Source: a virus (taxonomy: Duplodnaviria; Caudoviricetes). From it: DNA of 42,635 bases. The stretch is taken from the IMG/VR virus record IMGVR_UViG_3300037310_000230, positions 1 to 42,635 of that record, one strand, 5' to 3'. A program made the translations under genes and the position numbers. Position 1 is the first letter of the stretch. Each line of letters opens with the position of its first letter. Below the pieces are notes generated by a model. The model was not told the DNA's origin. It did not search any database and was given only the letters and a program-made list of their open reading frames with translations. This document shows positions 3,344-37,321 of the stretch, in pieces.

Positions 3344-3798
3344 CAGCCCACTCCATGCAGCCGGTACGCCGCGCAGAACCGCATCGACGCGCTGAACATC
3401 AGCCGGTGCTCGACCACGCGGTGCACCATGGCGTGCTCGTACGCGTGGATCATGCTCAACCCGCCGTGCCGGTAGTCCGCCACGATGCCGAGGTGTTGAG
3501 GCCGGCTGTCGAACGCCACGACCAACACATCGCCCGGCTGCATGGCGGTCTGCTCGATGCACACCATGTATGCTTCGCACCAGCGCAGCAGGCTCACGCC
3601 GTCTGGCTGCCGGGGGTAGTGCGTCACGTCGAAATCAGGCGCCACGAGACCAAGCTCTCGCGCCACGCCGATCACGAGTCCGGCGCAGTCCACCGCCAGG
3701 CCCTTGGTGCGCTGCTGGTGCTGAAACGGCGTGCCGAGCCAGCCGCGCGCGCAGGCCACCACATCTGTGCCAGATACCTGGAGTGCGGCCGCGCTCAT
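3343..3798 (-). CDS. NlpC/P60 tail-associated peptidase
   Basis: ARGWLGTPFQHQ...VDCAGLV...QPGDVL...QHLGI...MIHA; ATG at 3798 overlaps the upstream stop. Confidence 0.92.
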   Translation of the reverse strand: MSAAALQVSGTDVVACARGWLGTPFQHQQRTKGLAVDCAGLVIGVARELGLVAPDFDVTHYPRQPDGVSLLRWCEAYMVCIEQTAMQPGDVLVVAFDSRPQHLGIVADYRHGGLSMIHAYEHAMVHRVVEHRLMFSASMRFCAAYRLHGVG

Positions 3799-13929: not shown

Positions 13930-16836
13930 TCAGGTGTCCTTCACCAGGAACGCCGTCAAGTCGAGACCGGCAGTCGTGATCGTGCCGGAGAGCGGGCTGG
14001 TTTTGTAGAACGTCGCCGCGCTGCCCTTGCGCACGCGCCCGGTGACCGCTATGTCGGTGGTGTAGGCAAACGCCGTGTTTTGCAGAATGCCGCTGGCGTC
14101 GGTGGTGCCGTCGAGGATGACCCGATAGCTCGTGATCGTCCCTGTCGCCGGTGTCGTCGGTGTGCCGCTGACCGTGTAGTCGTAGGTGTTCGTAGTGACG
14201 TTCGAGATCGTCTTGACGCCGTTGTACTCGCCCTGATCTGCGCCGCTGATGATGACCTTGTCGCCGTTCGCCTTGCCGTGCGCGGTGTGCGTGACGGTGG
14301 CCGTCGAGCCGGACCGGGTGATCGTGACCGTGGTCCCGGTGCTGGCGTAGAGCAGTACGCGCGCGGACTGGATCGCTGCTGACGTGTCAGCGTCCTTGGC
14401 GGTTACCTTGACCGTCACCGCGTTCACCACGGTCACCGTGGCACCGGCGGTCCGGATACTCGGCGTCGAGCCCCCGCCGGTGATCGAGATCGTCATGCTG
14501 CCGCTGGCGATGTTGACGTAGATCGCCTCGTTGCCGGTGGAGCCGTTCGACGCGGCGTACCCGGTGAACGTCACGCCATCGAGCGTCATGTCCGCCGCCG
14601 TCCCGGTGATCGTCATGCCGTGGCCGGTGCCGCTCGATGTGAAGCTGCTGTCCGAGATGTTGTCCGCGGCGCCAGGGCTGGCCGCGGCCACGGTCGTGCC
14701 GGTAAACGAGCAGTTGGTCAGCGTGGCGGCGTTGAGCGTGAACGTCGGGCACGAGATGAACGACACCTGGTCCAGCGTGAGCGCCGACTGCAGCGTGACC
14801 GTGGCGCCGACGACCGTGGAGCCGGTGAAGTCGATGGTCGCGCTGCCGGACATCGCCGAGTCGAACTCCCAGCGGTACGGGCTCGGGCTTGTGAACAGGC
14901 AGTTCGTCCACTTGCACACGTCCGTGCTCTTCGGGTAGAACTTGACGCCCGCAACGTTAGCTGCCGCGTTCCACGTAAAGTAGTCGACACCGTCGTACAC
15001 ACGCGGGAATTGCAGCGTCACCTTGTCGACCGACAAGCACAACTTGTCGCCGCCGCCGAACTGCAGCGGTACGTAGGAGGTCGCCGCGGCGCCGGACTGC
15101 TTGATGAACGGGAACAGGCCGCACGAGTTGTTGACCACGTAAACCACGTCGTCGAAGTCCAGCGGCTCGGTAGACGAGCCGCCGGCCACTGAGAGGCGCG
15201 TCACCAAGTTGAGCATCGAGTAAACCCGCGCAACGGCGCCGGCTTGCGCCAGACTGGTCCAGATGCTGCGGGTGACGCTGCTCTTGTTCACCGCGCCGCG
15301 CAGAGCCCACGCCGTCGCAGCCCCATTCCAGTCGAGCGCAAACACATTGCGGCCGTCTGGGTCGACGTCTTTGGCGCCGCGGGCTTGGATGATGTAGCTG
15401 GCGTAGTTGGCGGACGAGTCGAGGAACGTCACTTGCAGCCCGCCCGGATCGGAGACCGGCATCGGGAAGCTCGGGTCGATGTCGAGGTCGCGTCGCAGAG
15501 CTGCGCGGAACGTACCGTAGATCAGCCCGGTGTCCATGTCCAGCGCCGTGCCGTACTGGTGCTCGAACCCGGACAGTGTTGTCGTTGTGCTCGATCCGGC
15601 ATGCGACGCACCGTCGGTGTACGGATTCGTTCCGTTGTCGCCCGAGGCCGTGGCCGCCGAGTACGTGGCGGTGCGCCCGCCCTTGCGGCCCTGCGTCAGC
15701 ACGATCGCTGTCGTGTACAGCGTCGTCACGCGCGCGCGAATCCAGAAATACGTCTGGCTGTTGATGGTTGTCGACGTCATGGCCGCCACGGCCGCCGTGC
15801 TCCACGTGATGAGCGTCTGGCCGGTAGCGAGCAGGCTCGAGCCGGTGACGCCTGTCGAGACCCACGATGAGCCGTTGTAGTACTCCCAGGCCAGCACGCC
15901 GGCTACCCCGGCCGTCGCTACGTTCAGGACCACTGCCTGGAACCGTTCGGTGCCGCCGAAGTACATGATGTCGCCGACCGCAGTGCCGAACGTCACGTCC
16001 GACGCAGTCGTGTTGTTCGTGGCGGCCGTGAAGTCGGTGAACGCACCGGACACGTCGCGCTGCACGTAGTCGAAGTCGTCGCCGATCGTCGGGATTGTCA
16101 GCGCCACCGGCCAGCTATCGGATTCGGTCGTCGCGAGGCCGACCATCGTCTTCAACACCTGCCCGTTGCTCACTGCGGCGTCACTGTACCCTGGCACTTT
16201 GGCGTCAGAGCTGGTGTCCTTGATTGCCAGCACGATGCCGCGGCCGTCGTCGTTCGCGCGGCCAAACCAGTTGGCGGCCGTAATCGAACCGGCCGTCCGC
16301 TGATAGGTATACGCGACCCCGACTGAATTCGCGCCGTTGTCACCCGCGTAGACGTTCGTCAACGGCGCGTAGGCGGTTGGGCTCAGCCCGGAGTCGCTGA
16401 ACCAGGCGTGCAGGATGAGGCAGTTCGCGTCGGTGTTCGTCGTGTCGCTGGGTCCGGCGAACGGCATGGCCGTGTCGTCGGCTCCGCTCTCGGCGGTCGC
16501 GCCACCGGAATCCGCGATCAGGTTCGCCAGGCTGGAACCGTCCGCGCCCTCGATCGACACCACGACCACGGTCCAGTTCTCGGCCGTGCCGGTTACCAGT
16601 GTCAGCGTCTCGGCGCTGGAGGCGGCGCTCTTGAACTCACTGCGGTACGCACAGCCGGCTGTCAGTCCGTCTTGGATGTTCGTCCACCCGGCTGTCGCGT
16701 TGATTGCGACGGCGCCGTCCTTCGATGAAAAGTGGATCAGCACGTCCCCAGCGACGTGCTCCGGCATGTTGCAGACGATCGAGGTAGACGTGGTGCTGCC
16801 CTGCTCGGTGACAGCAAAGTCTCGGATGCGGGCCAT
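13930..16836 (-). CDS. Large fibre/appendage-like protein (968 aa)
   Basis: GGAGG RBS; Thr/Ser/Gly/Ala-rich; beta-helix-like stretch (LTNCSFTG..ISDSSFTS..LDGVTFTG); TVTHTAHGKANGDKVIISG module typical of phage fibres. Confidence 0.7.
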   Translation of the reverse strand: MARIRDFAVTEQGSTTSTSIVCNMPEHVAGDVLIHFSSKDGAVAINATAGWTNIQDGLTAGCAYRSEFKSAASSAETLTLVTGTAENWTVVVVSIEGADGSSLANLIADSGGATAESGADDTAMPFAGPSDTTNTDANCLILHAWFSDSGLSPTAYAPLTNVYAGDNGANSVGVAYTYQRTAGSITAANWFGRANDDGRGIVLAIKDTSSDAKVPGYSDAAVSNGQVLKTMVGLATTESDSWPVALTIPTIGDDFDYVQRDVSGAFTDFTAATNNTTASDVTFGTAVGDIMYFGGTERFQAVVLNVATAGVAGVLAWEYYNGSSWVSTGVTGSSLLATGQTLITWSTAAVAAMTSTTINSQTYFWIRARVTTLYTTAIVLTQGRKGGRTATYSAATASGDNGTNPYTDGASHAGSSTTTTLSGFEHQYGTALDMDTGLIYGTFRAALRRDLDIDPSFPMPVSDPGGLQVTFLDSSANYASYIIQARGAKDVDPDGRNVFALDWNGAATAWALRGAVNKSSVTRSIWTSLAQAGAVARVYSMLNLVTRLSVAGGSSTEPLDFDDVVYVVNNSCGLFPFIKQSGAAATSYVPLQFGGGDKLCLSVDKVTLQFPRVYDGVDYFTWNAAANVAGVKFYPKSTDVCKWTNCLFTSPSPYRWEFDSAMSGSATIDFTGSTVVGATVTLQSALTLDQVSFISCPTFTLNAATLTNCSFTGTTVAAASPGAADNISDSSFTSSGTGHGMTITGTAADMTLDGVTFTGYAASNGSTGNEAIYVNIASGSMTISITGGGSTPSIRTAGATVTVVNAVTVKVTAKDADTSAAIQSARVLLYASTGTTVTITRSGSTATVTHTAHGKANGDKVIISGADQGEYNGVKTISNVTTNTYDYTVSGTPTTPATGTITSYRVILDGTTDASGILQNTAFAYTTDIAVTGRVRKGSAATFYKTSPLSGTITTAGLDLTAFLVKDT

Positions 16837-16848
16837 ACCGCCCTCCGT

Positions 16849-18540
16849 TTAGGCGTCGCTGGTGCGCACGGCGGTCGCAGATCCGCCAGCCGAACCCAGC
16901 GTGCCGGTCGACTCGAAGGTCTTGATAGGTGTGCTGCCGCCGTCGCGCACGCGGATGTAGAGGCTGCGGTCGCTGCCCGAGTACACCGCCGTGAAACTCT
17001 CGCTCGTCGACGCGGCCAGCTTGTCGATGTAGCTGAGGTACGTGTTCGCGCCATTCGCCGCGTTGTTGGTGCTGAAATCGTGCGACGTGATCGTGAATGT
17101 CTTCGTGCCGGAGTTGACAGCGCTGTACGGGTGCCGCGAGTACGCGCCGTTTGCGCGCTGGATGCGGATCGTGCCGGTGCTCGGCGTGTCGGTCGGGATC
17201 GCTTCGTTAACCACCACGCTCGTCACCGCGGCGCCGGTCAGTGCACCATTCAACGTGAACTGGTTCAGATCGATCGATCCGGCGTCGTTCGGCGCAACAA
17301 GCACGTAGTCCTCGCCGCTGACGATACCGTTGACGGTGAACGTCACGAAGTTCGGCGGCTGACGCAGGGTGTTCGTGAGATCGAACACCTTGTCGGACGC
17401 CGACAGGTCCAGCGCCTCGATGCCGAAGCCGTACGCGCCGATGATCGCCGAGCCGGTCGAGATGCCGCAAAACGGAAAACTCAGCGTCCGCTCGGTGACG
17501 GTGACGTTGACCAGACATGTCGCGCCGCTGGTCGACCCGGTGATCGTCTGGTTGTCTGTCGGGGCCACGCCGGTGAGCAACTGAATCCACATGGTCGTGC
17601 CGGCGGTCGGCGAGTTGATCGCGACCATGCGGCCCGTGCCTCCGGACCACGTCACACCCTCCTGCGCGTTGAACGTGCCGGTCGGCGTGTCGATGGTGAT
17701 CTGATGCGTGATGCCACGGAACAGCTCACCGTTGAGACCGTAGATCGTCGACGCGCTGCCGCGCCGCGTCAACCACTTCATCCGCTCGTAGAACTGGTTG
17801 ATCGAGAACGTCGCCTTGTTCCACTCGCTGTAGTACGGCTCGGTTATCGAGTCGTTGGTGACGTCGATCAGCCGGTAGCCCTCGGTGTTGGTGATCGTGG
17901 TCCAGGTCGCCACGGTCGCTTCGGCCGTGGTGTTGTTCAGGTCGTCGGCGTAGGTGAGCGGCACCACGTTGATGCCACGGCTGGTCCCGTTGACCTTGAA
18001 CTCGGAGTAGGTCTTCCCCCACTCCCGCGTCTGGGCGATCAAGCGCCGGCCGTCGATGTCCGCGGCGCCGGTGCGAACCTGCACGATGAACCGCATCGCG
18101 ATGCCATTGGCCGAGTCCGGATTGAGACCCTTGTTGCTGGACCCGAACGGGATCGAGTTCCAGAAATCGTTCGCTATCAGCGCGCCGTTTTGCACGAGCT
18201 CCACGTGCGCGCCGGCGTTCGCGACGATCTGGATACCGTCGTAGATGACGTCACCGTTGCTCTGGATGATCGAACCGCCGTACAGGTGCTCCGACGCGGT
18301 GGCGTCGATGTTGTACGAGTTGATCAGGTTGATGATCGTGTCGAACGACTTGTCCGACGGCGTGTCGCGCGTGATGTCGAGGAAGTCGTCGCTCGTGCTC
18401 GATGCGTCGTCGGCCAGGTCCTGCAGCCACCGGTGCAGCTCCAGCACCGTGTAGTAGCCGGCACCGCTCGCGCCGTGGGCGGCGCCGATGTACCGGATGT
18501 CCTTGTCGTTCTGGATCTCAAAATCGGTGCCGATGGCCAT
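16849..18540 (-). CDS. Hypothetical virion-like protein (563 aa)
   Basis: GAGGT RBS; starts 2 bp after the portal stop; Thr/Ser/Asn/Gly-rich beta composition. Confidence 0.72.
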   Translation of the reverse strand: MAIGTDFEIQNDKDIRYIGAAHGASGAGYYTVLELHRWLQDLADDASSTSDDFLDITRDTPSDKSFDTIINLINSYNIDATASEHLYGGSIIQSNGDVIYDGIQIVANAGAHVELVQNGALIANDFWNSIPFGSSNKGLNPDSANGIAMRFIVQVRTGAADIDGRRLIAQTREWGKTYSEFKVNGTSRGINVVPLTYADDLNNTTAEATVATWTTITNTEGYRLIDVTNDSITEPYYSEWNKATFSINQFYERMKWLTRRGSASTIYGLNGELFRGITHQITIDTPTGTFNAQEGVTWSGGTGRMVAINSPTAGTTMWIQLLTGVAPTDNQTITGSTSGATCLVNVTVTERTLSFPFCGISTGSAIIGAYGFGIEALDLSASDKVFDLTNTLRQPPNFVTFTVNGIVSGEDYVLVAPNDAGSIDLNQFTLNGALTGAAVTSVVVNEAIPTDTPSTGTIRIQRANGAYSRHPYSAVNSGTKTFTITSHDFSTNNAANGANTYLSYIDKLAASTSESFTAVYSGSDRSLYIRVRDGGSTPIKTFESTGTLGSAGGSATAVRTSDA

Positions 18541-18542
18541 AG

Positions 18543-20483
18543 CTACCTCTGGTCAGGTGCGGCGGCGATAGGCTCCGAAATGATCGAGTGCATCTCACCG
18601 TCGCTGTTGCGAACGATTGTTTGCCGCGTGCGCGCCGGCGGCTGCTGCACGACGGTGACCTGAGCCGGAGCGCTGACGACGCTAACCTGCGCTGGCTCGA
18701 CGGTCACGTGGCTGTGGACTTCGGGCGACGGGAGCGTTGCCTCCAGGTGCACCAGCCCGTCCGGCAGATTCACATCGCCGGCCATCACCGTCACCGGCGC
18801 CGGCGTCACGTTCACGATGGGTGCTGCCGCCGGCCTAGCTGCCAGCTCGCCGAGCTGCGCGGCAACGGCGGCCATTGATGCGGCCATTGCGCGCGTGTTC
18901 GCGTCTGGCTCGTCGTCTGGCACCGCCGGCGGCGGCGCTGGCTGCGGCGTGGTGTCTTGCTCGAGCCCGTCGCGAATGCGCGCCTGCCGCTCCTTGACCT
19001 GCTGGGCGTGCTTGGTTTCCCAGTCCACGCCGTCGTGCAGGATGCTCTCGGCCTGGCGGGTGCTGACGCCGACGGCGATGCGCCGCTCGGCGGCGTTGAT
19101 TTCCTTCTCGGGGTCGAGGCTGCCGGGGCCGTCGCCGACCCACTGGCAGCCGCACCACGCGGCGCGAGCCACGTCGCTGGAGAAGAAGCCCGGCGCAGCG
19201 ATTCGACCCGCGGCCACTTCGCCGGCGAGCCACAGTTCGTAAACCGGCTGGCAGAAACCGCAGGCCAGCCAGTCGCGCCAGCCCATGAAGAACTTCCACG
19301 CATGCAGAATGGCACCCTTGGCAGCGGAGTAGCTCGACTGGAAGTGCGCCGTCAGCACCTCGGCTGGGATGCCCAGCGCCATGCCTATCTGCACGAGCAC
19401 GGACTGGACGAATGGGTCGAATTGCGCATTGGGGCGGCCCGGATTGCTGGTGACGGGTTCCTCGCCGGGCAGCAGGTTGACCGCCTGGCCCGCTTCCATC
19501 TCGCCGGACCAGCCCTTCGCGCGGTCGACAAGCGCACCTTGCGCGTCTTCGTCGAACAAGTCTTGGAATGCGATCGGGTCCATTTTGAGGAACACCGAGA
19601 ACAGCCCCGACGTCACCGCGGCCTGAAGTTCGGCGTTCGTGTACGTGCCGATCTGCTTGATCTGCTCGATCACCGGAGACAACATCGGCGCGCCGCGGCG
19701 TTGCCCGGGCCGGCTTGGGCGGTACAGGTGCAGCACGTTGCGCCGGCCGGTCTTGGCGCCGCGGACCGCGACAGGGCGCCACGTCATGGCTTCTCGGCCA
19801 ATCTCGCCCGGGTGGCGGTCCGTCACGTGAATGGCGAGTTCCTCGCCGGTGTTCGCGTCGATCTGGATGCCGTCGACCATCGTCGGCGAGTCGGCCATAC
19901 CTCGGGGAGTGCTGACGCGATCTGCCTCCAGCAGTTGCAGCGCGATCTGCGCTGGGCGGCCTGGACGGGTGGCGGTTGGTGTAAGCACGAACGCGTCACC
20001 GCTCTCGATAGTCGCCCTGAAGGCGAGGGCCTGAAGCCCGTAGAAGCTCAGCTGTCGAGACAAGTCGCACTCGGTGCTGTCGGCCCATGTTCGGAAGCGG
20101 CGGCGGACGTCTTTCTGCCACTGCGCGGCCTGTTCCTGGCTCAGGCCGAGGAACTCGGCGTCGACCTGCGGCGTGCAACTGAGGCCGGTTCCGACGACGT
20201 GGGCGACAGTGGTTTCGATGGCGCCGGTTGCGACGGGCGCGTTTCGCGCCAGGTCGCGGCTGCGTTCGCGCAGTTTCGGCAGATCCGGGATCAGGTCGGC
20301 GTCAGGCGATCCGGCGCGTGTCTTCCATGCGGCCGTCTGTGCCCTGTCGAGTCTGGCGCCGGTGTACCCACCAGCAATGGCCAAGGCCCCGCGCTGCTGC
20401 ATCATGCGCAGGGCGACGTCGGGCCTGAAGTAGGCGACGACCTTATCCCACAGATTCTGCGGAAGTTCGCGCTGCCGCATCAC
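18543..20483 (-). CDS. Portal protein, lambda gpB family, with C-terminal extension
   Basis: LRERSRDLARNAPVA, LQLLEADRV, RPGQRRGAP, SSYSAAKG, SLDPEKEINA. Confidence 0.95.
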   Translation of the reverse strand: MMRQRELPQNLWDKVVAYFRPDVALRMMQQRGALAIAGGYTGARLDRAQTAAWKTRAGSPDADLIPDLPKLRERSRDLARNAPVATGAIETTVAHVVGTGLSCTPQVDAEFLGLSQEQAAQWQKDVRRRFRTWADSTECDLSRQLSFYGLQALAFRATIESGDAFVLTPTATRPGRPAQIALQLLEADRVSTPRGMADSPTMVDGIQIDANTGEELAIHVTDRHPGEIGREAMTWRPVAVRGAKTGRRNVLHLYRPSRPGQRRGAPMLSPVIEQIKQIGTYTNAELQAAVTSGLFSVFLKMDPIAFQDLFDEDAQGALVDRAKGWSGEMEAGQAVNLLPGEEPVTSNPGRPNAQFDPFVQSVLVQIGMALGIPAEVLTAHFQSSYSAAKGAILHAWKFFMGWRDWLACGFCQPVYELWLAGEVAAGRIAAPGFFSSDVARAAWCGCQWVGDGPGSLDPEKEINAAERRIAVGVSTRQAESILHDGVDWETKHAQQVKERQARIRDGLEQDTTPQPAPPPAVPDDEPDANTRAMAASMAAVAAQLGELAARPAAAPIVNVTPAPVTVMAGDVNLPDGLVHLEATLPSPEVHSHVTVEPAQVSVVSAPAQVTVVQQPPARTRQTIVRNSDGEMHSIISEPIAAAPDQR

Positions 20484-34308: not shown

Positions 34309-34827
34309 ATGTTCGAGATCACAAACCCCACCACCGCCACCCTCGTCTCCATCACCTCGCGCAGCGAGAAGCATGGCGACGACGAAGTGCCGGCCGTGTC
34401 ATACGGCCTCAAGATCACCGGCGCCGCAACGCTGCTCGATCTGCTAGACAAAGATCTGCGCAGCGCGATCTATCACTCGCCGCGGAACAAGACGATAGAG
34501 GGCGTCGATCCGGTGGCGCAGACGCTGCGCTGCGCCGCCATCGAGCACCTGAGCGTGAACGTCGGGCCGTTCGAGGGCTGGACGCTCAACGTCGATCACG
34601 GCATCGACGAGGAGACGCCGATCACGTTCGGCGGCTGCAAGGTCGACAAGTTCAGAATCGCGCCGATCGAAGGCGGCAGCGTCGAACTGAGCCTACGCGT
34701 ATGCACCAGCGACATCAGCGCCGAGGCCGTGGGCCTGATGGCGATGCAAATCGGGCAGGACATCGAGATCACGCTCGTCGCGCCGAAGGTGAAGGCCGAG
34801 GGCAAGCCGACGCTCAGCGCAGGTTAA
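34309..34827 (+). CDS. Hypothetical phage protein (172 aa)
   Basis: SRSEKHGDDEVPAV...PIEGGSVELSLRV; phage-like codon usage. Confidence 0.82.
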   Translation: MFEITNPTTATLVSITSRSEKHGDDEVPAVSYGLKITGAATLLDLLDKDLRSAIYHSPRNKTIEGVDPVAQTLRCAAIEHLSVNVGPFEGWTLNVDHGIDEETPITFGGCKVDKFRIAPIEGGSVELSLRVCTSDISAEAVGLMAMQIGQDIEITLVAPKVKAEGKPTLSAG

Positions 34828-34837
34828 GGCGGCGTCA

Positions 34838-35245
34838 GTGTTGAAGGCGCCGTTATCCGTGCAAAGTGAGCAAGTGAAGAACTGGATTGTCAGGGCTTTG
34901 GGATTGCGCGGTAGTTGGAAATGGGCATGCAAGCAAATGGACCGCGGCGAATGGGTAAGACCAGCACACGCAGCCGGGACGGTGAAATACAGGCTTGACC
35001 ACGAAGGACAGCGCAGAATTGTGTGGACTTTCAAGCGCGAGCCGACAGAGAACAAAGATTGGGAAAGCGCCAATATTTTTCTGAGCGACTTTGAGGCTAC
35101 GGATTGGGTTTGCGTAGAACGAGCTCCATCACTTGCGGCTGAAAGCCGTCAAGTGGATGGCAGAGTTAGGTCCGCCGCCGCACCACAGCAGCCAGATCTG
35201 GCGGCAGATATGGGGCCAGGAGTACAGGAGGACCACCGAGCATGA
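34838..35245 (+). CDS. Low-GC accessory gene, weak Tad2/DUF2829-like pattern (true start may be 34859 or 34874)
   Basis: About 52% GC over 34861-35100; WKWACKQMDRGEWV...W...SDFEATDW. Confidence 0.55.
   Translation: MLKAPLSVQSEQVKNWIVRALGLRGSWKWACKQMDRGEWVRPAHAAGTVKYRLDHEGQRRIVWTFKREPTENKDWESANIFLSDFEATDWVCVERAPSLAAESRQVDGRVRSAAAPQQPDLAADMGPGVQEDHRA
35114..35171 (-). other. Integron attC-like recombination site (58 bp), reversed relative to the gene
   Basis: Minus strand: R'' ACCTAAC, 5 nt, L'' CATCCACT, stem-loop, L' AGTGATG, 6 nt, R' GTTCTAC; extrahelical G and T on the folded plus strand. Confidence 0.78.
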
Positions 35246-35248
35246 TGC

Positions 35249-35890
35249 ATGACACAGCCAGCAGACCAGACGCAGACGCGGAGGCCGATGCGCAAGCAGT
35301 TCTGCCACGACGCCGAGGTTGAGGAAATGGGCGCGACCAACGAACGCGGCCATCAGATCAGCGGCCACTCTGGCATGTGGTGGGACGCAACTCGAGGCGA
35401 TCCTGATGCGGCGGCGCACTGTCCATACGGACAGCCAGGCGACCGGCTGTGGGTGCGCGAGACGTGGGCGGTGTTGCATGCCGTCGACCACCTGAAGCCG
35501 CGGGAGATCCCGCAAGGCGCTGGGATGGTGTACTACGCCGCCACCGAAAACCTCGGCGGTCTAATGAAGCGGCCATCGATATTCATGCCCCGCTGGGCCT
35601 CGCGCATCACGCTCGAGGTCACCCGCGTGCGCGTCGAGAGGTTGCAGGACATCACTCGCGCCGACGCGATTGCCGAAGGCGTTGAGTGGAACAAATGCCC
35701 GACGCAGCAGACGCAGCGGAGCATGGACGCACAACGCGCAGCGCACCGCATCGGCATGGCCGCGCACTACGAGGCCGAGATCGACTACGTTGGCGGCTAT
35801 CGCTGGCTGTGGGAGTCGATCAACGGCCCCGGCTCGTGGGCCGCGAACCCGTGGGTGTGGGTCGTCGAATTCACGCGGGTCGAGAAGTGA
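35249..35890 (+). CDS. Conserved phage protein (ASCH/PUA-like), possibly N-truncated
   Basis: TQTRR, CPYGQPGDRLWVRETW, PSIFMPRWASRITLEV..VERLQDI, NPWVWVVEF. Confidence 0.78.
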   Translation: MTQPADQTQTRRPMRKQFCHDAEVEEMGATNERGHQISGHSGMWWDATRGDPDAAAHCPYGQPGDRLWVRETWAVLHAVDHLKPREIPQGAGMVYYAATENLGGLMKRPSIFMPRWASRITLEVTRVRVERLQDITRADAIAEGVEWNKCPTQQTQRSMDAQRAAHRIGMAAHYEAEIDYVGGYRWLWESINGPGSWAANPWVWVVEFTRVEK

Positions 35891-36066: not shown

Positions 36067-36407
36067 TGCTGCTCACTTTACCCGAAGCCGCCGCCAGTCT
36101 GCGCGTGAGCCTGCGCACGATCGAACGCGAGGTGGCCGACGGGCGGCTGGCCATCGTGCGCATCCGCACCCGCCGCATGGTCGACCCCGCCGAGCTGGCG
36201 CGATACATTGCCGCGGCCAGCCAGGCACAGCCATGTCGATCCGCAAGCGAGGAAACCGCTACCAAGTGCGCGTCCGCGTCGGCGGTGGCGCACGCCTTGA
36301 ACGCACTCTTCCGCCCGGCGCCACCCTTGCAGACGCGCGGGCGCTCGAAGTCGCGCTTGGCCGCGCCCGCATCGACGCTGCGGTTGGTCGGCCCCAGCGA
36401 TACCTGA
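36063..36407 (+). CDS. xis: Excisionase-like HTH protein
   Basis: LLTLPEAAASLRVSLRTIEREVADGRL; directly before the integrase. Confidence 0.8.
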   Translation: MMLLTLPEAAASLRVSLRTIEREVADGRLAIVRIRTRRMVDPAELARYIAAASQAQPCRSASEETATKCASASAVAHALNALFRPAPPLQTRGRSKSRLAAPASTLRLVGPSDT

Positions 36408-37237
36408 TCGACCAGGCCGTTGACCGCTGGGTGGCCAGCAGCGCGCAAAGCCTGCGCAGCTGGGCCAAAGATGTGCGCTACCGCGTCGACACCCTGCGCA
36501 CCCACACCGCCGGCCAGCCGATCGAGGCCCTGCCCGCTGTGGCCGACACCATCAAACGCCAAGGCCTCGCCGCCGGCGTGGCGCCCGCCACCGTGAACCG
36601 GCTGCTCGCCATACTGCGCCGCGTGGGCAACCTGGCCGAGCGCTGGGGCTGGACGCGCGAACCCATCGGCCGCCGCGTTGAGCTCGTGCCCGGCGAACGG
36701 CCGCGCGAGGTCTACGTCACACCCGCCCAGGTGCGCGCCCTGGCCGCCGCGGCCGAGCCCGTGACGCGCGATTTGATCCTGTTCGCCGCCCTCACCGGGC
36801 TGAGGCGGTCCGAGATCCTGCGGCTCACACCGGCCGATGTGCGCGGCGATGTCGTGGTGGTCGACAGCCGCAGCAAGAGCGGCAAGAGCCGCGTGGTGCC
36901 GCTGGTGGCCGAGGCCGCACGCATCGCCCGCAGGCGGCTGCCGTTCGCGATCGGCGTGCCGCTGCTCACCAAGCGCTTCAGGCTGGCCAGGGCCGCCGCC
37001 GGCCTGCAGCACCTGCGCCTGCACGACCTGCGTCACGCCTTCGGCACCTGGCTGGCCGAGGCCGGCACCGATGGCCCCACCATCCGCGACGTGATGGGCC
37101 ACAGCTCGCTCACGGTGACCAGCCGGTACCTGCAGAGCGGCAGCGAGAGCGCCCGGCGGGCGGTGGACAAACTGCCGCGCCTGGGGTCAGGCCGGGGCCA
37201 GAAGGCGCCCGCCAAGCCCCGCCCGAAGGCGGCATGA
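36233..37237 (+). CDS. int: Tyrosine integrase
   Basis: MSIRKRGNRYQVRVR arm domain; TGLRRSEI, SKSGK, LHDLRH, MGHSSLTVTSRY. Confidence 0.95.
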   Translation: MSIRKRGNRYQVRVRVGGGARLERTLPPGATLADARALEVALGRARIDAAVGRPQRYLIDQAVDRWVASSAQSLRSWAKDVRYRVDTLRTHTAGQPIEALPAVADTIKRQGLAAGVAPATVNRLLAILRRVGNLAERWGWTREPIGRRVELVPGERPREVYVTPAQVRALAAAAEPVTRDLILFAALTGLRRSEILRLTPADVRGDVVVVDSRSKSGKSRVVPLVAEAARIARRRLPFAIGVPLLTKRFRLARAAAGLQHLRLHDLRHAFGTWLAEAGTDGPTIRDVMGHSSLTVTSRYLQSGSESARRAVDKLPRLGSGRGQKAPAKPRPKAA

Positions 37238-37261
37238 TGAGGTTGTTTCACCTATGAGAAC

Positions 37262-37321
37262 TGGCGGAGAGAGTGGGATTCGAACCCACGGTACGGGAGA
37301 TCCCGTACACCGGATTTCGAA
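37262..37321 (-). other. attP core: 3' 60 nt of tRNA-Ser(CGA)
   Basis: Minus strand TTCGAAA-TCCGG, long variable arm GTACGGGATCTCCCGTAC, GTGGGTTCGAATCCCAC, TCTCTCCGCCA; 5' half of the tRNA absent; adjacent to int. Confidence 0.92.

Follow-up and report, generated by a model that had tools for sequence, protein, structure and literature searches.

A reversed attC-type site beside a gene of predicted Tad2 fold in a temperate tailed phage, a candidate remnant of cassette exchange by a host integron integrase

Integrons have been treated as bacterial devices, and the strand selectivity of their recombination has been seen as serving expression from the promoter Pc. A hairpin in the genome of a tailed phage raises the question whether the same type of folded site can supply genes to a phage in the opposite orientation, and by whose enzyme. 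The window analysed here (42,635 nucleotides) is the whole 42.6-kb virus record of a temperate tailed phage with PHROGs matches for terminase, portal, capsid, tail, lysis, replication, RecE-like recombination, excisionase and integrase genes. The hairpin lies within a plus-strand operon which extends from about 29.7 kb to the integrase. A preliminary description of the sequence had proposed a reversed, integron-like cassette between 34817 and 35171, closed by an attC-like hairpin, and a phage which borrows a host integron integrase for the capture of accessory, possibly anti-defence, genes. Coordinates of the features are compiled in Table 1.

Table 1. Features at and around the attC-type site (positions in the window; strand of the feature or, for the site, of its top strand).
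Feature	Positions	Strand	Basis or remark
Upstream phage gene, ends in GTTAAGG	34309..34827	+	about 33% identity to Burkholderia phage proteins
Weak candidate for a decayed or hybrid remnant of the hairpin belonging to the cargo	34817..34851	+	weight-matrix ranks
GTTATCC, which probably opens the low-GC unit (269 bases) as its left box	34852..34858	+	GC drops here
Tad2-like cargo domain, about 80 residues	34874..35116	+	start inferred from homologs; 27 homologs, frame classifier
attC-type site	35114..35171	top strand: -	fold z-scores, geometry scan, covariance model
R' box, GTAGAAC on bottom strand; right end of low-GC unit	35114..35120	+	
Stem: L' 35127-35133; 3-base loop 35141-35143; unpaired T35149; L'' 35152-35159 with unpaired G35156	35127..35159	+	
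R'' box, GTTAGGT on plus; would open the unit owning the hairpin	35165..35171	+	no matching end box downstream
Read-through tail, 42 codons across the hairpin	35117..35245	+	classifier -3.5, non-coding
ASCH-like gene (phrog_874) without the family's first ~20 residues	35249..35890	+	77 bases past the hairpin
Tyrosine integrase without IntI insertion	36233..37237	+	PHROGs, IntI profile, alignment
tRNA gene, 3' part, Ser anticodon CGA	37258..37321	-	identity read by eye

The 58-base imperfect palindrome was found at the expected place with the letters previously given for it. Its fold z-scores are -4.4 on the plus and -5.1 on the minus strand, none of 200 shuffled sequences folding equally well, and a scanner for attC geometry, run with the minus strand as top strand, assigned it a score of 19, compared with 11.5 for the runner-up in this genome and a maximum of 16.5 over 100 shuffled genomes. 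The attC geometry on the minus strand was thereby confirmed: the stem stands between R'' and R' boxes that contain AAC and GTT triplets, and the hairpin displays a spacing of 5/8/7/6 with an 8-base L'' and a 7-base L', and, on the bottom strand, an unpaired G and a second unpaired T. These extrahelical bases, G35156 (or 35155) and T35149, had likewise been recognised earlier; they occupy positions 16 and 23 counted from the start of the top strand and match G16 and T23 in the numbering of attC aadA7 (PMC5027507). Since the top strand is the minus strand, the recombining bottom strand is the plus and hence the coding strand. The recombining fold has a computed chance of 0.038 on either strand, which places the site in the lowest fifth of viral sites; the stem is perfect. 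In R' the hairpin reads GTTCTAC, departing from the consensus GTTRRRY. Scanner and covariance model both located one attC-type site across the whole genome, in line with the single intact site noted before, and the definition of a CALIN asks for at least two attC sites.

A search of GTDB genomes with the stem core retrieved 40 loci, 18 of which carry AAC and GTT boxes at attC spacing (two duplicates and one doubtful case included), the boxes being no part of the search pattern. Their hosts belong to Planctomycetota, Spirochaetota, deltaproteobacteria, Nitrospiraceae, other bacteria and one archaeal bin; one of the sites adjoins an IntI fragment, and a full IntI above the family cut-off was detected in 6 of the 16 genomes holding sites of this subfamily. 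A covariance model of 16 prokaryotic sites, seeded from sites found by the window's own core and hence circular for the stem core, matched the hairpin on the minus strand with 44.2 bits (E 1.4e-10) as against 14 bits on the plus strand, so that the check on both strands suggested in advance returned the expected strand. The departure of R' from GTTRRRY, raised earlier as a caveat, is real, but carries little weight, because deviating R' boxes occur naturally in the GTDB set as well (GTTCGAC, GTTCGAA); even the conserved triplet was described as tolerant in PMC2811028. Judged by its letters, the window hairpin is a member of an attC subfamily of prokaryotic integrons. The exact core pattern had no match in viral contigs, a looser pattern yielded mostly chance matches with locus L178 as the sole clear site, and L178 was also the only match of the covariance model over 92 loci. 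A site of the same subfamily in canonical polarity was observed in a Promethearchaeota bin (L247).

The hairpin follows a small, foreign-looking gene in the most AT-rich part of the genome. The 286-base interval of lowest GC is 34851-35136, with 52.4% compared with 66.8% overall and 57% in the next lowest interval. The low-GC segment of the preliminary description, about 52% GC, was thus recovered, but begins near 34852 rather than at 34817, as 34817-34851 have 66% and 34852-35120 have 52%. The gene has 27 close homologs of about 80 residues and 154 cluster representatives in a profile search, and its frame was scored +3.3 by a frame classifier, the antisense ORF -2.4; GTG codons at 34838 and 34859 are alternative upstream starts. 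The ORF 34838-35245 runs through the hairpin, as had been claimed for the gene. This holds for the window ORF, but not for the closest relatives, which stop at the AAC box: the three closest homologs (P0002-P0004) end at WVCV, and L111 has TAA where the window has GAA. The read-through is explained by this GAA, and the 42-codon tail by the missing stop codon. The sequences of window, L111 and L097 can be aligned as far as AAC, past which each has a different hairpin. In L097 the cargo homolog is framed by perfectly complementary boxes, GTTAGAT and ATCTAAC, and its start codon is situated within the loop of the upstream hairpin; a related upstream hairpin precedes the homolog in L094. In both (L097 4193-4301, L094 1855-1941) the hairpin itself encodes the homolog's N-terminus, and the conserved Val-Arg codons contain the GTT box, the window equivalent being GTCAGG (about 34883). 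Altogether, cassette-type sites, chosen partly by eye, occur at 5 of 24 cargo-homolog loci in three independent contexts, so the family is not confined to cassettes. The strict scanner reported no site at these 24 loci; in relaxed form, run on four loci chosen by eye, it scored L094 and L097, not L111.

What the gene encodes was approached through its fold. A first lead, and used as a lead only, came from the ESM Atlas with Tad2-like clusters at 0.88. P0002, which has 84% identity to the window domain, was modelled with AlphaFold2 at a pLDDT of 85; in Foldseek the ten best rows for this model were all Tad2 (TM 0.62-0.68, probability 0.97-1.0, E about 0.1-0.3), and in a comparison with 48,161 chains AcrIIA7 (Z 9.1) and ModTad2 (Z 9.0) ranked ahead of the next chain at 5.9, with an rmsd of 2.4 over 65-66 aligned residues. 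At the level of sequence, PF11195 matched 11 of 106 distant homologs at E<=0.05, two of them above the cut-off, and matched neither the window protein nor P0002; a search of PDB sequences returned nothing with the close alignment and AcrIIA7 at E 0.18 with the wide one. The product is thus predicted to be a counter-defence protein of Tad2 fold, and the anti-defence role considered earlier appears likely on the strength of the P0002 model. With Tad2/DUF2829 proteins (PF11195; SPO1 Tad2, ModTad2, AcrIIA7) it shares the predicted fold (Z about 9), the size and a C-terminal DW strand, and differs from them in scoring below the Pfam cut-off, in another loop after the first strand, in an added N-terminal helix and, in the window, in a 42-residue tail. 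Tad2 proteins were reported as tetrameric sponges of gcADPR and other signals (10.1101/2023.05.01.538930; 10.1101/2025.08.24.671296). Such sponges are characterised by pockets between the protomers of a homotetramer and by binding of a nucleotide immune signal, which blocks Thoeris, CBASS or Pycsar. Identity to Tad2 amounts to 14-17% and the W-N-G loop is not conserved, so that a sponge activity of the cargo is putative.

The coding strand of the cargo is the recombining one, the reverse of the usual cassette; frame classifier and homologs of the plus ORF both bear out this part of the preliminary description. To place it in context, viral contigs were scanned with an unrelated attC motif, which gave 123 loci, among them 61 distinct sites that had 500 or more bases to either side. 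Strand calls by ORF length were uninformative (18 bottom, 16 top and 23 mixed of 57) and were replaced by the frame classifier (cross-validated AUC 0.99). By the latter, 51 of the 61 viral sites are flanked by genes of the bottom strand alone, seven by genes of the top strand alone, two by genes of both strands and one by none, as opposed to the top strand alone at 14 of 16 scored GTDB sites, a contrast which is imperfectly controlled because the two sets use different attC subfamilies. An independent check with PHROGs brought matches for 17 of 74 ORFs on the bottom strand, as against 3 of 74 on the top strand, these being the first 74 of 105 and of 84 candidates, respectively. The reversal of polarity is real, and common in phages. 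One canonical phage array exists in L178 (2716-4740), with one site of the window's subfamily. The viral cargo with named PHROGs matches includes DNA methyltransferases as well as Gam-like and Mom-like proteins. In L292, L300, L301 and L319 a reversed hairpin is immediately followed by a Mom-like gene for DNA modification.

The make-up of the mobile unit emerged from neighbouring viral sites. In 110 site pairs, which include related contigs and are not independent, the boxes around one gene are perfectly complementary in 74, compared with 23 and 26 for boxes within a single site; complementarity averages 3.47 of 4, permutations 2.51 with a maximum of 2.8. Sites with a common downstream and a different upstream gene have hairpins with a mean similarity of 0.73 (21 pairs), those with only the upstream gene in common 0.46 (6 pairs), equal to the background of 0.46; restricted to units with both hairpins, the comparison comprised 7 pairs. 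In the clearest cases genes of 100% identity are followed by unrelated hairpins immediately past AAC, and near-identical viral hairpins differ in the four bases preceding AAC. Both this divergence of identical genes and the fidelity of each hairpin to the gene downstream put the joint at the bottom-strand AAC, which is the cleavage point of IntI (PMC5027507). Read from these comparisons, the phage unit is hairpin-GTT-gene-AAC, each hairpin travelling with its downstream gene. With the joint at the AAC box, the window hairpin abuts the low-GC gene without being that gene's own, and the notion that it closes the gene's own segment has to be given up; cargo exchange at the AAC boundary, on the other hand, is seen in other phages as hairpins swapped behind identical genes. 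For the window a crossover AA|C between 35119 and 35120 is inferred.

A further observation concerns L111, where three units with complementary GTT and AAC boxes (1440-1450, 2625-2660, 3410-3440) were noted, two of which end in a common palindrome (ATAA-6 bases-TTA) followed by a shared 20-base tail. This palindrome, which we take to resemble a dif or attG site, is possibly a double-stranded entry site of reversed arrays.

Measured against such units the window copy looks eroded: a single site is intact, the remnant on the left is weak and the downstream gene is truncated at its 5' end. The candidate left box GTTATCC is one of three GTTA on the plus strand between 29 and 38 kb, and the same box occurs in the natural array L322; it agrees with GTAGAAC at two of the four variable positions. 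The stretch 34817-34851 folds no better than shuffled sequences, ranks 201 of 85,220 (3' half) and 41 of 85,244 (L' arm) in weight-matrix scans and has 11 bases in common with one viral hairpin arm. Between 35172 and 38000 the plus strand holds no AAC box complementary to GTTAGGT. The missing N-terminal motif of the ASCH-like gene gave a pattern match in 58 of 62 distinct homologs and in no frame of the window; the gene was probably truncated by a deletion which removed the hairpin's own cassette. Among 80 loci of this downstream gene none has a site directly upstream, and at three sites farther downstream the bottom strand is the gene strand throughout. The surviving site could accept a new cassette; excision of the Tad2-like gene from the window copy seems unlikely.

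Concerning the enzyme, the phage integrase lacks the ~40-residue IntI-specific insertion, as had been noticed, and reaches 34.7 bits against the IntI profile, whose cut-off is 265; neither an intI with the insertion nor an attI, the parts of a complete integron, was found in the window phage. IntI is likewise absent from 39 of 40 virus records with such sites (mostly fragments, five being at least 90% complete), 38 of them being without any IntI-profile match; the sole IntI-bearing record is a provirus whose site was classed as canonical. The partial tRNA-Ser(CGA) beside the integrase is likely the attP core. ARAGORN detected no full tRNA gene, an Rfam search had no match, and the best hit of a host search with attP was 92% among 401 genomes of one betaproteobacterial order. 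A contig from one freshwater run covering the locus, possibly of the source sample, is the same at every base and without variants; in the reads of this run no joint skipping the low-GC unit was seen, and no RNA data set with the locus was listed. Searches revealed no iterons in the phage genome, no promoter or plus-strand terminator calls at the locus and no close relative in which the locus was empty or had other contents. Elsewhere in the genome, 33753-34255 hold a DUF6948-like gene followed by an ORF of Gly-Asp-Gly/Tyr-Gly-Asp-Gly tandem repeats, whose array is unlike that of the near-identical contig L001, and long minus-strand ORFs of 968 and 563 residues with little or no PHROG annotation lie between portal and head protease (13930-20483).

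Several other origins of this arrangement have to be weighed. A strong stem immediately past the natural stop position of a gene could be a terminator or a chance palindrome, yet there is neither a T-run nor a terminator call, and AAC/GTT boxes, spacers and unpaired bases all stand in attC register, leaving this account highly improbable. Equally improbable is that a normal bacterial cassette went in the wrong way round, its real gene being encoded by the minus strand. Minus-strand ORFs do exist at 34693-35073 and 35129-35515, and genes lie on the top strand at about one in eight viral sites, L178 being canonical; this origin is nevertheless largely refuted, both ORFs being classified as non-coding (-2.4 and -3.6), the one at 34693-35073 without PHROG match, while the plus ORF is backed by 27 close homologs and about 150 distant ones.

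Two further readings, both rather improbable and to a similar degree, deserve more attention. An enzyme different from IntI, for instance a Xer-like recombinase of host or phage, might act on these same folded sites and shuffle the reversed arrays, as the lack of IntI in the phages and the dif-like palindrome that terminates two L111 units could suggest. Against this speak a window core near-identical to sites of IntI-bearing prokaryotes with G16 and T23 kept, and published evidence that both the attC sites of phages (PMC9892861) and dif-like, double-stranded attG sites (10.1101/2022.09.11.507474) are substrates of IntI1; the 38 of 40 virus records without IntI-profile match were also counted on this side. 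Alternatively, the hairpin may be a passive fragment of a bacterial cassette that came in by ordinary or illegitimate recombination, the Tad2-like gene having arrived independently. A single site with eroded flanks and a truncated neighbour would fit, as would the 19 of 24 cargo-homolog loci that show no site, and off-target recombination was raised as a route by Qi et al. (PMC9892861). However, in each of window, L111 and L097 the end of the gene coincides exactly with the AAC box and a different hairpin comes next, and random capture would produce neither one polarity at 51 of 61 sites nor matching boxes around genes.

The explanation that we favour, and consider reasonably probable, is that the IntI of a host, recombining the bottom strand at AA|C, assembled a reversed array which a deletion later trimmed. 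A circular cassette would recombine with the folded site at AA|C (35119/35120), and insertion would put its gene into the sense of the early operon, without a promoter of its own. Under co-directional replication the coding strand would be the lagging-strand template and thus exposed, a situation favouring attC folding (PMC5371416). A reversed cassette entering the host integron would be antisense to Pc. Decay since then would have left the left hairpin no longer intact, the stop codon gone and the downstream unit cut off into the truncated ASCH-like gene. More broadly, dozens of phages with the reversed layout likely swap counter-defence genes by means of a borrowed host integron enzyme. The further step, a mirror-image cassette pool shared by phages, loaded with counter-defence genes by the host integron integrase, expressed in the phage and silent in the host integron, is advanced tentatively, its chances lying slightly below even. 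If it were true, the pooled cargo would include an unrecognised Tad2 subfamily here and methyltransferases, Mom-like and Gam-like genes elsewhere, and the enzyme concerned would be the one that also stocks anti-phage cassettes, so that the same recombination chemistry would serve both sides of the defence conflict. Anti-defence genes would then be findable as small genes between GTT and AAC boxes on the coding strand, a rule which points here to a Tad2-fold family missed by Pfam. The window locus by itself is a worn example, and the weight rests on the comparative pattern.

Parts of this picture are published. attC sites and CALINs in phage genomes without intI, with methyltransferases among the cargo, were described by Qi et al. 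(2023; PMC9892861), and IntI1 recombined five of the six phage attC sites tested there, the bottom strand better than the top; recombination of phage attC clusters by IntI1 is accordingly known. These CALINs are clusters of at least two sites, mostly typical arrays, and genes on the bottom strand are unreported in the main text, whereas the window has one site, a bottom-strand gene and a hairpin which precedes its gene. A literature search, to which subscription papers were mostly closed, retrieved no paper on reversed polarity or Tad2 cassettes among phage attC sites. Classical cassettes (PMC5027507, PMC5371416 and PMC2811028) share with the window the AAC/GTT boxes, the 5- and 6-base spacers and G16/T23, and are known for bottom-strand cleavage at AAC and matching boxes at the cassette ends. 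They carry the gene on the top strand and their own attC after it, so that Pc reads the gene; in the window, by contrast, the coding strand is the bottom strand, and intI, attI and Pc are lacking. Insertion at attG, by which IntI places cassettes outside integrons at double-stranded sites likened to dif, was demonstrated with classical cassettes in the chromosome, not with reversed cassettes or phage arrays (10.1101/2022.09.11.507474). By comparison with all of these, the window element would work like an integron cassette site and is, as far as its sequence can tell, neither a classical cassette nor a CALIN nor an integron.
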